From NCBI GenBank assembly GCA_027337125.1, contig GCA_027337125.1_3057.1: a DNA stretch of 64,000 bases, one strand, 5' to 3'. Shown one piece after another: positions 1,202-54,725 of the stretch. The notes beneath the pieces were generated by a model that saw only the letters and a list, made by a program, of their open reading frames with translations, ran no database searches and had not been told where the DNA came from. Source of the DNA: a phage. A program made the translations under genes and the position numbers. The stretch's first letter is position 1. The number at the start of each line of letters is the position of its first letter.

Positions 1202-1489
1202 ATGAAAACTTTCAAAGAATTTACTTCTACAACTACCCCGGTTTCTACTATTACTGAAGCTACTCTTACTTCTGAAGTTATTAAAGCAAATAAAGGACGA
1301 GAAGGTAAACCAATGATTAGTTTGGTTGATGGCGAAGAAATCAAAGGTACTGTTTACCTAGGTGATGGGTGGTCTGCTAAAAAGGATGGTGCTACAATCA
1401 TTATCTCTCCTGCTGAAGAAACTGCGTTGTTTAAAGCTAAACACATTTCTGCGGCACATCTCAAGATTATTGCTAAAAATCTTTTGTAA
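1202..1489 (+). CDS. internal head protein at the ipI locus, with capsid-targeting N-terminus
   Basis: N-terminus MKTFKEF resembles T4 CTS (MKTYQEF); 95 aa; early promoter upstream; T4 IPI is an anti-restriction protein. Confidence 0.65.
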   Translation: MKTFKEFTSTTTPVSTITEATLTSEVIKANKGREGKPMISLVDGEEIKGTVYLGDGWSAKKDGATIIISPAEETALFKAKHISAAHLKIIAKNLL

Positions 1490-7388: not shown

Positions 7389-8308
<920 letters not shown>

Positions 8309-17718: not shown

Positions 17719-17742
17719 ATTTCAAAATTTTTTCATAAAACA

Positions 17743-17772
17743 GTTTACAAACATAAAGCTTTATGGTACTAT
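17743..17772 (+). promoter_or_regulatory. early promoter with conserved leader
   Basis: GTTTAC-17 bp-TACTAT followed by ACAACTATCAACTGATACGGATTTGGAGAA leader. Confidence 0.6.
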
Positions 17773-17806
17773 ACAACTATCAACTGATACGGATTTGGAG
17801 AACAAA

Positions 17807-18775
17807 ATGAAAACTGTAACTATCAATAAGGGTATCTACTTCGGTAAAGAAATCTCTGGAACTTTTGAGCTCTTAGGCGAATGGTTCCCAGATAATGCTC
17901 CGGTAGATGCACAAGGAGATGGTAAAGTTTTTGTTGAAATTGACGGTAAACGTCGCGGTGTTTGGGTTTACAAATCAGACATTTCATATGATGGTGTAAA
18001 AGTTGAAGAAGTTAAAGAATCATATGAAGATATGAAAACCCGCATTAATAAAAGATTTAATGTTATGGGAATGATGACGAATGGTATTATTAACGGAAAT
18101 ATTCGTTCATTAATTATCTCTGGTGCGGCGGGTATTGGTAAAACGTATTCTTTAGATAAAGCTTTAAATAAAGCAAATGATATTGGATACATTGAGTATA
18201 AAAGCATTAACGGTAAAATCTCTGGTATCGGTCTTTATGAACAGCTTTGGAATAATCGTGAAGAGAATTCTGTCCTTTTGATTGATGATGTGGATGTTTT
18301 CTCTGATATGGACATTCTTAATCTTCTAAAAGCTGCTCTGGACACTGGAGAGACCCGTAAAGTCTGCTGGAGCACTGCATCTTCTTACTTAGAAGAAAAA
18401 GGCATTGAGCGTGAGTTTGAATTTAAAGGAACGATTGTTTTTATCACAAACGTTGATATTGACCACGAATTAGACCGTGGTACTAAACTTGCTCCACATT
18501 TACAAGCATTAGTGTCCCGCTCAGTTTATTTAGATTTGGGTGTTCACACTAATGAAGAAATTATGGTCAGGGTTGAAGATGTTATTCTTTCAACTGACAT
18601 GATGCAAAAGCGCGGTCTTTCTGATGAAGAAACTTATAAAGCATTATCATGGATGAAAGTCAATGTTAATCGTTTACGCAATGTTTCACTGCGTACTGCA
18701 CTTTATCTTGCTGACTTTATTATGACCGACAAAAACGGTTGGGAAGAAATCGCTGAAACGGTATTGTTAAAATGA
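17807..18775 (+). CDS. AAA+ family ATPase
   Basis: Walker A SGAAGIGKTYS, Walker B LLIDDVD, sensor-like ITN; ATG after GGAGAA; ORF-track upstream extension runs through terminator and promoter. Confidence 0.6.
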   Translation: MKTVTINKGIYFGKEISGTFELLGEWFPDNAPVDAQGDGKVFVEIDGKRRGVWVYKSDISYDGVKVEEVKESYEDMKTRINKRFNVMGMMTNGIINGNIRSLIISGAAGIGKTYSLDKALNKANDIGYIEYKSINGKISGIGLYEQLWNNREENSVLLIDDVDVFSDMDILNLLKAALDTGETRKVCWSTASSYLEEKGIEREFEFKGTIVFITNVDIDHELDRGTKLAPHLQALVSRSVYLDLGVHTNEEIMVRVEDVILSTDMMQKRGLSDEETYKALSWMKVNVNRLRNVSLRTALYLADFIMTDKNGWEEIAETVLLK

Positions 18776-50723: not shown

Positions 50724-50760
50724 TTTACAAGCTGACAAGACTATGGTATAGTAGTCTTGT
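50723..50760 (+). promoter_or_regulatory. early promoter with -10 bracketed by 8-bp inverted repeat
   Basis: GTTTAC-17-TATAGT; arms ACAAGACT / AGTCTTGT. Confidence 0.6.
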
Positions 50761-50965: not shown

Positions 50966-51208
50966 ATGCACATTGTTTTATTTAAACCTACTCCGTATAA
51001 TGTCAAGAAAAATACTCAATTCAAAGCACTTGTTGCAGATACGTGGGAATTGGTGTTAGATATTCCAGCAGAAGAAAGTCCTCCATTTGGTCGAGTGGAA
51101 TTTATTAAGTTTGCTGTGCGCCCTACGAAGCGACAGATTCGCCAATGCAAAAGATACTTTCGTAAAATCGTCAAGTTAGAGAAACAGTTATTGATGCTAG
51201 TAAAATAG
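50966..51208 (+). CDS. hypothetical basic protein (61.4 position; candidate anti-toxin factor)
   Basis: ATG after GAGGATAAT; 80 aa, Lys/Arg-rich C-terminus; sits in dmd-sp island. Confidence 0.5.
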   Translation: MHIVLFKPTPYNVKKNTQFKALVADTWELVLDIPAEESPPFGRVEFIKFAVRPTKRQIRQCKRYFRKIVKLEKQLLMLVK

Positions 51209-51210
51209 TA

Positions 51211-51252
51211 GTTTACAAGCTGATAGAGTTGTGTTATAGTAATTCTATCAGC
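51211..51252 (+). promoter_or_regulatory. early promoter with -10 bracketed by 9-bp inverted repeat
   Basis: GTTTAC-17-TATAGT; arms GCTGATAGA / TCTATCAGC. Confidence 0.6.
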
Positions 51253-51271: not shown

Positions 51272-51526
51272 ATGATGCTAGTTAATAGAGAATATCAGTT
51301 TAAATCAGAAGAAGATTTGGAAAAATTCGCGAGTGGTTGTGAACTGAATAGACGCACAGCTAAAGTCATAGGATTAAAACCCTTTACAGTTCTAGATTGT
51401 GAAGTTTCTAAATTCCGCAGAGGGTGTTCTATTAGCGGTCATGCTCTGGTTGATGGGAACACATTTTTCTTTGTTTTTAGCGTCAGAGAACTTTTATTGA
51501 TTAACGAACTTGAGGAAATAAAATAG
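51272..51526 (+). CDS. hypothetical protein
   Basis: 84-aa ORF with GGAG SD. Confidence 0.5.
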   Translation: MMLVNREYQFKSEEDLEKFASGCELNRRTAKVIGLKPFTVLDCEVSKFRRGCSISGHALVDGNTFFFVFSVRELLLINELEEIK

Positions 51527-51583: not shown

Positions 51584-51877
51584 ATGAAAAAATTTGTTTT
51601 TGCTGCAATTTTTGCTTTGGCTTCTTGTGCTGCTCAGCCTGCTATGGCGGGTTATGATAAAGATTTGTGCGAATGGTCTATGACTGCAGATCAGACTGAG
51701 GTTGAAACTCAGATTGAAGCAGATATTATGAATATCGTTGAACGTGATCGCCCTGAAATGAAAGCTGAAGTACAAAAACAGCTTAAGTCTGGTGGTGTAA
51801 TGCAGTATAATTACGTTCTGTATTGTGATAAAAACTTCAATAATAAAAATATCATCGCTGAAGTAGTAGGTGAATAA
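51584..51877 (+). CDS. sp: Spackle (Sp, 61.3) periplasmic lysozyme inhibitor
   Basis: 97 aa with signal peptide; matches recalled T4 Sp (MKKF.FA.IFALASCAAQPAMAGYDKDLCEW...). Confidence 0.85.
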   Translation: MKKFVFAAIFALASCAAQPAMAGYDKDLCEWSMTADQTEVETQIEADIMNIVERDRPEMKAEVQKQLKSGGVMQYNYVLYCDKNFNNKNIIAEVVGE

Positions 51878-51889
51878 TTAGAGGCTAAT

Positions 51890-52056
51890 ATGAAAACGTT
51901 TAAAGAATTTATCAAAGAAGATATGGTCGCTGGAGATTCAGGTGGTAATCCTGAAAATATCTCTACTGGAACAACGTCAGGCGCTGTAGTAAATAAAGGT
52001 CCTGAACAGATTCCTAAAAAGAAAAAAGAGGAATCTAAAGAAAAAGAAGAGTAAAA
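51890..52056 (+). CDS. small Lys/Glu-rich peptide with CTS-like N-terminus (55 aa)
   Basis: MKTFKEFIKE resembles capsid-targeting sequence with I-x-E; below ORF-track cut-off. Confidence 0.4.
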
Positions 52057-53085
52057 ATGTCATCAATACCTTGGATTGATAATGAGTTTGCATATCGTGC
52101 GCTAGCTCATTTACCTAAATTCACACAAGTAAATAATAGTTCAACTTTTAAATTACGGTTTAGATGCCCTGTTTGTGGAGATTCAAAAACCGACCAAAAT
52201 AAAGCTCGTGGATGGTATTATGGCGATAATAATGAAGGAAATATTCATTGCTATAACTGTAACTATCATGCACCAATCGGAATATATTTAAAGGAGTTTG
52301 AACCCGATTTATATCGTGAGTATATCTTTGAAATAAGAAAAGAAAAAGGTAAAAGTCGTCCAGCAGAAAAACCTAAAGAACTTCCTAAACAACCTGAGAA
52401 GAAAATAATTAAATCTCTTCCGTCATGCATTAGATTGGATAAACTGGCGGAAGACCATCCAATTATAAAATACGTAAAAGCTCGATGTATTCCAAAGGAT
52501 AAATGGAAATATCTTTGGTTTACAACCGAATGGCCTAAATTAGTTAATAGTATAGCGCCAGGAACATATAAAAAGGAAATATCTGAGCCTCGTCTTGTTA
52601 TTCCAATTTATAATGCTAATGGAAAAGCTGAGTCTTTTCAAGGACGTGCATTAAAGAAAGATGCTCCTCAAAAATATATCACCATCAAAGCTTATCCTGA
52701 GGCAACAAAAATCTATGGAGTCGAACGGGTTAAAGATGGTGATGTATATGTTCTAGAAGGACCTATAGATTCTCTTTTTATTGAAAATGGTATAGCTATT
52801 ACGGGTGGTCAATTAGACCTAGAAATTGTTCCATTTAAAGATAGACGTGTATGGGTTTTAGATAATGAACCTCGTCACCCTGACACTATTAAACGAATGA
52901 CTAAATTAGTTGATGCAGGAGAAAGGGTTATGTTTTGGGATAAATCTCCCTGGAAATCAAAAGATGTCAATGATATGATTAGAAAGGAAGGTGCAACCCC
53001 TGAACAAATTATGGAATATATGAAAAATAATATTGCCCAAGGGTTGATGGCTAAAATGCGGCTATCTAAATATGCTAAGATTTAA
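52057..53085 (+). CDS. 61: DNA primase gp61
   Basis: 342 aa; zinc ribbon CPVCGDS...CYNCNYH; TOPRIM-like EGPIDSLF. Confidence 0.95.
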   Translation: MSSIPWIDNEFAYRALAHLPKFTQVNNSSTFKLRFRCPVCGDSKTDQNKARGWYYGDNNEGNIHCYNCNYHAPIGIYLKEFEPDLYREYIFEIRKEKGKSRPAEKPKELPKQPEKKIIKSLPSCIRLDKLAEDHPIIKYVKARCIPKDKWKYLWFTTEWPKLVNSIAPGTYKKEISEPRLVIPIYNANGKAESFQGRALKKDAPQKYITIKAYPEATKIYGVERVKDGDVYVLEGPIDSLFIENGIAITGGQLDLEIVPFKDRRVWVLDNEPRHPDTIKRMTKLVDAGERVMFWDKSPWKSKDVNDMIRKEGATPEQIMEYMKNNIAQGLMAKMRLSKYAKI

Positions 53086-53282
53086 ATTAACCCAACTAAA
53101 GCAAATGCTAAATCTACGAATGTATCAAGAGTAATTACTGGAATACTAACGCCATGAGCAATAGCAACTGGCGATAAAACAAAATTCCAAAGTAAAATTC
53201 CTATCATAGCAGAAATAGTAAAAGCTATACGTTTTTTATTACCTTTGATGGCATTAACAAGTGCCATTAATTTTTGTACCAT
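53082..53282 (-). CDS. small membrane protein on the opposite strand (66 aa)
   Basis: Only minus-strand gene with strong SD (AAAGGAGG 7 nt before ATG) and ATAAATAT late-promoter-like box; two hydrophobic helices; overlaps last codons of gene 61. Confidence 0.5.
   Translation of the reverse strand: MVQKLMALVNAIKGNKKRIAFTISAMIGILLWNFVLSPVAIAHGVSIPVITLDTFVDLAFALVGLI

Positions 53283-53385: not shown

Positions 53386-54725
<1,340 letters not shown>

Follow-up and report, generated by a model that had tools for sequence, protein, structure and literature searches.

The 64,000-nt stretch of phage DNA analysed here (hereafter the window) carries, between the genes for Spackle and primase, a short open reading frame (ORF) whose product starts like an internal protein of T4. 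We have asked whether this product could be a packaged anti-defence factor, as an initial annotation of the sequence had proposed, or whether its sequence and gene context point to another role.

Identity and parts of the gene product

The window derives from a Tequatrovirus (T4-like phage), the top match being Escherichia phage EP01 (98.6% across 2.7 kb). The ORF is real, but it ends at position 52054, 2 nt earlier than the 52056 first given, and encodes 54 rather than 55 amino acids. Its location was as described, with sp upstream (51584-51877) and gene 61 downstream (52057-53085). The features of the locus are the following:

51881..51884, + strand, Shine-Dalgarno GAGG, 5 nt ahead of the 61.1 ATG
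51890..52054, + strand, gene 61.1 ORF, ATG at 51890, TAA at 52052-52054, 54 aa
51890..51919, + strand, residues 1-10, MKTFKEFIKE, decapeptide resembling a capsid-targeting sequence (CTS), also aligning with gp23 residues 57-65
51911..51919, + strand, I-K-E, motif of the I/L-x-E type of the prohead protease (gp21), predicted cut after E10
51920..52003, + strand, residues 11-38, DMVAGDSGGNPENISTGTTSGAVVNKGP, module homologous to the 28 residues that open mature gp23*
52004..52051, + strand, residues 39-54, EQIPKKKKEESKEKEE, variable tail, basic then acidic
52057..53085, + strand, primase gene 61, beginning 2 nt past the 61.1 stop, conserved downstream neighbour

The encoded protein (MKTFKEFIKEDMVAGDSGGNPENISTGTTSGAVVNKGPEQIPKKKKEESKEKEE) aligned with T4 gp61.1 (NP_049649, annotated as "hypothetical protein") with 53 of 54 residues shared, which identified the ORF as gene 61.1. 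It was assigned to phrog_1823 (function unknown; E = 7e-34), with a further match to phrog_2086 (E = 2e-16). The Pfam search found no family for the ORF or for the longer relatives described below, and no function for 61.1 was found in the literature searched.

The product had been described as a lysine/glutamate-rich peptide of low complexity. This holds for its two ends, which are K/E-rich, but not for the central 28 residues, which form a conserved G/S/T/N-rich module. The tail is encoded by frameshift-prone A-runs (52013-52050). T6-type alleles (P0003 and P0004) carry a frameshifted longer tail, KKKKRNLKKKKSKNVINTLD, giving a protein of 62 aa that reaches into the primase start, suggestive of slippage-prone variation of the 61.1 tail and of the gene 61 initiation region.

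A CTS-like start followed by a protease site

T4 IPII and IPIII both start with MKTYQEFIAE, to which the 61.1 start is identical at 7 of the 10 positions. The first seven residues of 61.1 are also those of the internal-protein gene found at position 1202 of the window (MKTFKEFTST...). A six-frame scan of the 64 kb with the motif MK[TS][FYIL].[ED][FLYV] returned exactly three ORFs, those at 1202 and 7910 and 61.1 itself, so that the match is not one expected by chance. This supported the CTS-like N-terminus that had been noticed on 61.1 and on the 1202 and 7910 genes. The CTS suffices to bring foreign proteins into T4 proheads, and gp21 cuts after I/L-x-E (PMC12991175, PMC3012670).

The I/L-x-E site claimed to follow the CTS-like start was also found, as I-K-E, and it is a family trait. 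Seventy of 75 family members have [LIMVF]-x-E within the 7 residues before the conserved core, and 52 of 75 have [LI]-x-E there, against backgrounds of 9% and 5%, respectively, measured as the frequency of each motif elsewhere in the same 75 proteins. CTS-like starts of the MK[TS]F.[ED]F type persist in very diverged short forms of the protein (<50% identity), among them MKSFTEFV..., MKTFNELM..., MIKFKDFVE... and MRLMKTFNEFLKE..., and stand in some of these 20-30 residues from the module.

The internal-protein set of the window (1202-1489 and 7910-8308) differs from that of T4. The IPIII-like gene, which adjoins the lysozyme gene e, encodes a 132-aa product similar to T4 IPIII over its C-terminal two thirds, and the ipI-type locus encodes a 95-aa CTS protein with its first I/L-x-E at residues 17-19 (ITE).

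61.1 copies the cut site and N-fist of the major capsid protein

[quoted passage not shown] At this position gp21 cuts gp23 and takes off its first 65 residues (PMC9546572), and residues 66-91 form the N-fist of mature gp23* (PMC7136217). When a profile of the 61.1 family was searched against all 177,635 distinct PDB sequences, T4 gp23 was the sole significant match (E = 1.1e-5; E = 4.5e-4 for mature gp23*). Comparison of the long-form relatives with capsid N-termini by hhalign gave a probability of 97.7% (E = 2.1e-12) over 39 columns, with the K-run of the 61.1 tail falling on the VRR of the gp23 N-arm. No similarity was found by hhalign beyond this 39-column module, which ruled out that the N-terminal domain of the long forms is a homologue of the gp23 delta-piece.

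The body of the HK97 fold (A, P and I domains, E-loop) is absent from 61.1, where 37-39 residues align (gp23 57-100). The labels "major capsid domain-containing protein" and "capsid protein" that databases attach to 61.1 relatives are therefore misleading, the protein having no capsid fold. In the unexpanded head, gp23 residues 66-105 are disordered and lie inside, probably on the gp22 core/scaffold (PMC7136217, PMC9546572); on head expansion they move outside, with the N-fist touching four subunits and helping to make the Soc site (PMC9546572). Judged by alignment and structure prediction, 61.1 is a conserved, disordered mimic of the gp23 cut site and N-fist with a basic tail behind. As read from these alignments, such copying is new, being absent from the literature searched.

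Mimicry of Gol/Lit was considered as well, but Gol, which we take to lie downstream of gp23 residue 93, would not overlap the 61.1-like segment. Reviews place Gol in a 29-residue region, the most conserved, of the first quarter of gp23.

The 61.1 family comes in two architectures

The module was detected by tblastn in 1,439 phage records (phages of Escherichia, Klebsiella, Aeromonas, Acinetobacter, Vibrio and others), so that conservation of the ORF, which the initial annotation had made a condition of its proposal, proved strong. An exhaustive HMM search returned 51 clusters at the 50% level, with zero capsid proteins among them. The module is nearly invariant within the family, and the window ORF fits its core motif, E-x-MVAGDSGG-x4-IA-x-G-x-TSG-x-V-x3-GP followed by a K/R-rich tail.

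Short forms (50-90 aa, phrog_1823) have the CTS-like start, whereas long forms (125-165 aa, phrog_2086) have a conserved N-domain of ~105 aa before the module. The T4-type phages carry the CTS-headed form, and most other T4-like phages the one with the N-domain. The N-domain occurs in 607 records and is annotated as gp61.1 in Aeh1 and in Acinetobacter phage 133. An HMM built from long forms alone matched the window ORF (E = 4.6e-22). AlphaFold2 modelled the N-domain as a confident helical bundle (pLDDT >90 for residues 10-70) and the module and tail as disordered (pLDDT about 50). Both N-terminal parts, CTS or helical N-domain, precede the same conserved [LIMVF]-x-E site, as expected for removable delivery parts.

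Foldseek found no solved structure in the PDB similar to the N-domain model. In BFVD the model matched homologues only, some of them within proteins of 387-913 aa (A0A411BBR2, 672 aa; A0A1B1IT15, 913 aa; A0A6J7WVK5, 396 aa; A0A7S5R3P1, 387 aa), whose other domains could reveal the partner of the N-domain. No remnant of the N-domain was detected anywhere in the 64-kb window. T4 61.2 (AdfA), considered as a split-off N-domain, was rejected, there being no similarity between the two. In some long forms the K-rich tail is followed by a CTS-like motif (...KKLKKFRHFD, ...KIKSFLEFDSK), and others run via ...NFKQFVEGLEADK into an additional domain of ~100 aa; these features were seen in KVP40 (L004:13248-13724), P0057, P0036, P0051 and P0053.

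The module matches the capsid protein of its own phage

We have then compared the module with the gp23 of the same phage. The KVP40 module is identical to KVP40 gp23 at 20 of 35 positions, and Aeh1 61.1 and Aeh1 gp23 have the lineage-specific DATKIA and SGS[VI]T in common. The capsid N-terminus of phiN3 is shorter and differently built, reading ...LLQE|AAPTTNTGNIATYDPVLISLVRR, and the 61.1-like protein of this phage ends in ...IVEVEGSAVPSTNTGNIPDTVAKKSPVLKRKEK. The two match as AVPSTNTGNI...PVL (61.1-like) and AAPTTNTGNI...PVL (capsid), and the G.TSGAV...GP stretch that T4 and KVP40 have is missing from the two.

At the nucleotide level, the eight identical residues of the phiN3 pair share none of their codons (0/8) and no third base. 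In other phages, the module and gene 23 are 54-70% identical in nucleotides, with the same codon used at up to about half of the identical residues (8/15 in Aeh1). Recent gene conversion from gene 23 was rejected on these values, and the phiN3 match without shared codons indicates that the resemblance is held at the protein level, by selection and not by gene conversion.

In an own-versus-foreign 6 × 6 matrix, the observed diagonal was reached in 6 of 720 permutations, a figure to be read with the small sample of six phages and the choice of segments by hand; leaving out phiN3, 6 of 120 permutations reached it. PspYZU05 gave no own-specific signal, and no fine-scale co-variation was seen within Tevenvirinae or PspYZU05. 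Co-variation with the cognate capsid, as measured on these alignments, is thus real at depth and weak at short range.

61.1 is a backbone gene with early transcription

The ORF had been placed inside the dmd-sp anti-defence island (dmd-tifA-sp-(adfA), termed "anti-TA island" by Srikant et al.). This could not be upheld, as 61.1 is fixed beside gene 61 even in phages without the island (Aeh1, KVP40, phiN3). Aeh1 has 41, 61.1 and 61 in immediate succession, and KVP40 has 61.1 directly upstream of 61; one or two small ORFs separate the 61.1-like gene from the primase gene in Acj133 and phiN3 (a distant Sinorhizobium phage, Emdodecavirus). The gene is hence a neighbour of gene 61, or separated from it by a few ORFs on the upstream side, in the window, T4, KVP40, Aeh1, Acj133 and phiN3. 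Given the 41-61.1-61 synteny elsewhere, the T4-type island is an insertion between 41 and 61.1, and by gene order 61.1 is a conserved backbone gene, not a gene of the anti-defence island. The island itself is in flux: compared with T4, the window lacks adfA and has one extra ORF.

Two sites resembling early promoters precede the gene:

50724..50752, + strand, sigma-70-type early-promoter-like site upstream of dmd, TTTACA-17-TATAGT with TG, 10/12
51212..51240, second early-promoter-like site, TTTACA-17-TATAGT with TG, 10/12

Both are the likely source of a transcript running through sp, 61.1 and 61. No perfect late promoter (TATAAATA) was found on the + strand within 38 kb upstream, and one-mismatch sites were rarer than chance. 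The 61.1 RNA of T4 is classed as early (PMC9697503, supplementary file 4), as are the ipI/II/III RNAs, and the T4 61.1 protein was not detected in the time-resolved infection proteome (PMC9697503). A head-related gene in the early block has a precedent in gene 40 (head-vertex assembly chaperone), which shares the early uvsX-40-41-61.1-61 block.

What 61.1 may do

The conserved CTS-like start, the [LIMVF]-x-E site and the strong conservation of the ORF make a prohead-targeted, processed peptide the leading reading. On the sequence evidence, 61.1 probably enters the head during assembly or works on it, and is less likely to be a chance lysine-rich peptide. The more specific proposal, a prohead-targeted mimic of the capsid N-terminus that is processed by the protease, is put forward tentatively, with somewhat less than an even chance of being correct. 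Inside the prohead, the gp23 N-terminus would touch the scaffold and protease core; 61.1 would gain entry to the prohead core by the same contacts, with the help of its CTS or N-domain, and gp21 would cut it there after I-K-E. The cut would free a 44-residue peptide, DMVAGD...KKKKEESKEKEE (with a free Asp-11 N-terminus), which might either stay with the DNA through its basic tail or dock at N-fist sites. For the long forms, which have no N-terminal CTS, any route into the prohead is conjectural.

Several observations speak against prohead entry. 61.1 does not figure in the T4 prohead-core inventory quoted in PMC9546572 and went undetected in the infection proteome (PMC9697503), and no report of it from virion mass spectrometry was found in the literature searched. 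The gene always lies within the replication cluster, with no perfect late promoter near it. Co-variation with the capsid is weak once phiN3 is left out (6/120) and absent in PspYZU05. A 4.5-kDa product could, moreover, leave through the capsomer openings (PMC9546572).

The main rival reading retains the mimicry but has the peptide stay in the cytoplasm, never packaged. Such a peptide would compete for binders of the gp23 cut-site/N-fist segment and would thereby adjust when heads assemble or dampen immune sensing. The candidate partners are free gp21 (for which 61.1 would be a pseudo-substrate or a buffer), gp22, a chaperone, and a sensor by which the host perceives capsid protein or protease activity. 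The early transcription unit without a late promoter, the modelled disorder of the module and the protein-level match to the cognate capsid all agree with this. Hosts are reported to sense gp21 activity via an I/L-x-E loop in CdnG (PMC12991175), so that a mimic of the protease site could matter, and 61.1 adjoins the anti-toxin island in T4-type phages. However, the conserved CTS-like start of the short forms, sometimes far from the module, would be left unexplained, and the fixed synteny across Straboviridae and an Emdodecavirus is unlike that of patchy anti-defence genes. We consider this explanation possible, though rather doubtful. The two that follow, injected cargo and a primase-linked role, are less well supported. 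The initial proposal of a CTS-tagged cargo that is packaged, enters the host with the DNA and acts early against its defences, in the manner of IPI, draws on the CTS-like decapeptide with its I-K-E site, on a basic tail that could ride on DNA, and on internal proteins being a known anti-restriction route (PMC3012670). Yet what follows the site is a conserved copy of the gp23 cut site and N-fist that tracks the phage's own capsid protein instead of varying, which argues for head assembly or maturation rather than for a host-specific anti-defence payload. There is also no late promoter nearby, 61.1 is a backbone gene belonging neither to the island nor to an internal-protein locus, and it is not among the reported internal proteins (PMC9546572). 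Cargo of the anti-defence type is accordingly improbable.

A link to replication, either as accessory of primase/helicase or as leader ORF setting gene 61 expression, with the capsid resemblance incidental and the basic tail binding DNA, would fit the gene order of T4, KVP40, Aeh1, Acj133 and phiN3, with 61.1 between 41 and 61 or beside them, the 2 nt that separate the 61.1 stop from the primase ATG in the window, and the K/R-rich tail found throughout the family. Coupling of 61.1 and 61 is, however, not general, since 40-80 nt or further ORFs lie between 61.1 and gene 61 in other phages, and neither the conservation of the peptide nor its gp23 homology and cognate-capsid match would be explained; we hold such a link to be unlikely. 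That the gene is without function, a remnant of gene 23 partially duplicated long ago, might be suspected from its shortness, the lack of a known phenotype and its absence from one proteome (PMC9697503). The conservation pattern contradicts a dead relic: the module hardly varies in about 1,400 records and in 51 clusters at <50% identity, synonymous sites are saturated while amino acids match, and the ribosome binding site is good. A relic is thus very improbable.

Returning to the assembling head, we give close to even chances to the broader view that 61.1 is an unrecognised and widely conserved head-maturation factor, a free-standing mimic of the gp23 cut site and N-fist that co-evolves with the cognate capsid, is delivered by CTS or N-domain and acts on the prohead protease, scaffold or lattice. 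Possible roles of such a factor would be that of a pseudo-substrate or timer of maturation, or of an internal peptide bound to lattice or DNA.

T4 head assembly is among the most thoroughly studied morphogenetic pathways. If the proposal is true, 61.1 is a player so far missing from the picture of prohead maturation, protease control or capsid stabilisation, and a natural case in which one viral protein mimics another of the same virus and keeps pace with it. Engineering of T4 into a vaccine and delivery vehicle also makes use of the CTS, and a natural minimal cassette of CTS plus cleavage site, with its fate in the head, would bear on this engineering. A phage-encoded substrate mimic would likewise bear on the arms race with I/L-x-E-loop sensing of the prohead protease (PMC12991175). 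Gene 61.1 itself is already known; its reading as a CTS-headed mimic of the cognate capsid N-terminus that bears the cut site, goes back to a fusion with a helical domain and has its fixed place beside the primase gene was not found in the literature searched.

Relation to known systems

The T4 internal proteins IPI, IPII and IPIII are CTS-tagged, processed by gp21, packaged and injected. Like them, 61.1 starts with an MKT[YF].EF[IL].E-type decapeptide that closes with I/L-x-E, is small, has basic stretches and is expressed from early mRNA. Their cargo is variable and folded, whereas 61.1 continues after the site with a conserved and disordered copy of the capsid N-terminus. The 61.1 locus is the 41-61 backbone instead of the hypervariable ip loci, most family members carry the 105-aa domain instead of a CTS, and packaging is putative. 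61.1 is hence not a variable cargo at a polymorphic ip locus, nor is it a patchy accessory insertion like the genes of the anti-toxin island (dmd, tifA/61.4, adfA/61.2), each of which inhibits a host toxin.

Among the small accessory proteins of T4 head assembly, to which 61.1 may be likened, the prohead-core proteins gp67 and gp68 and the protease inhibitor Inh act on gp21 or are cut by it. No sequence similarity to 61.1 was seen for the three, and their genes are late and located in the head gene cluster. The N-terminal segment of gp23 is homologous to 61.1 over about 39 columns including the cut site, and both are disordered when undocked (gp23, PMC9546572; 61.1, AlphaFold2 model), whereas 61.1 has no HK97 fold, delta-domain homology or N-arm. 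The vertex protein gp24 (MAKINELLRE|S) also has a 10-residue propeptide ending in L-x-E, which gp21 removes (PMC9546572); unlike in 61.1, this decapeptide heads a full capsid protein, and the sequences are only loosely similar. An extra density beneath gp24* is also mentioned in PMC9546572. Finally, the activation loop of the CBASS enzyme CdnG offers the prohead protease a disordered I/L-x-E segment outside the capsid protein (PMC12991175); unlike the phage 61.1, it is host-encoded and part of an enzyme, so that the likeness is one of analogy only.

Neighbouring genes

The tifA/61.4 homologue (50966-51208; Pfam DUF7279) is 95% identical to T4 gp61.4. Between it and sp lies an ORF of 84 aa (51272-51526, + strand; phrog_2980, "goF mRNA metabolism modulator"), with an early-promoter-like site of its own in front (51212-51240); T4 lacks a gene here. 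The gene adfA (T4 61.2, anti-DarT factor A, 627 nt), carried by T4 and many close relatives such as vB_EcoM_P8 (L002:1678-2304), is absent from the window, where, as in EP01, the end of sp (51877) is followed by the start of 61.1 (51890).

Downstream, a hydrophobic ORF of 66 aa (53082-53282, - strand; phrog_2024) overlaps the primase stop; it is 92% conserved in T4 DNA (NC_000866, about 17738-17935), where it is unannotated. An ORF of 186 aa (53386-53946, + strand; phrog_8706, function unknown) ends at the start codon of dam (53946-54725). It gave sub-threshold Pfam matches to the DpnII (GATC) and BanI endonucleases (E = 0.0025 and 0.0096, respectively) and may encode an endonuclease-like partner of the GATC methylase. 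In T4, all that is left of it is a 21-aa piece of the 3' end, located upstream of dam.
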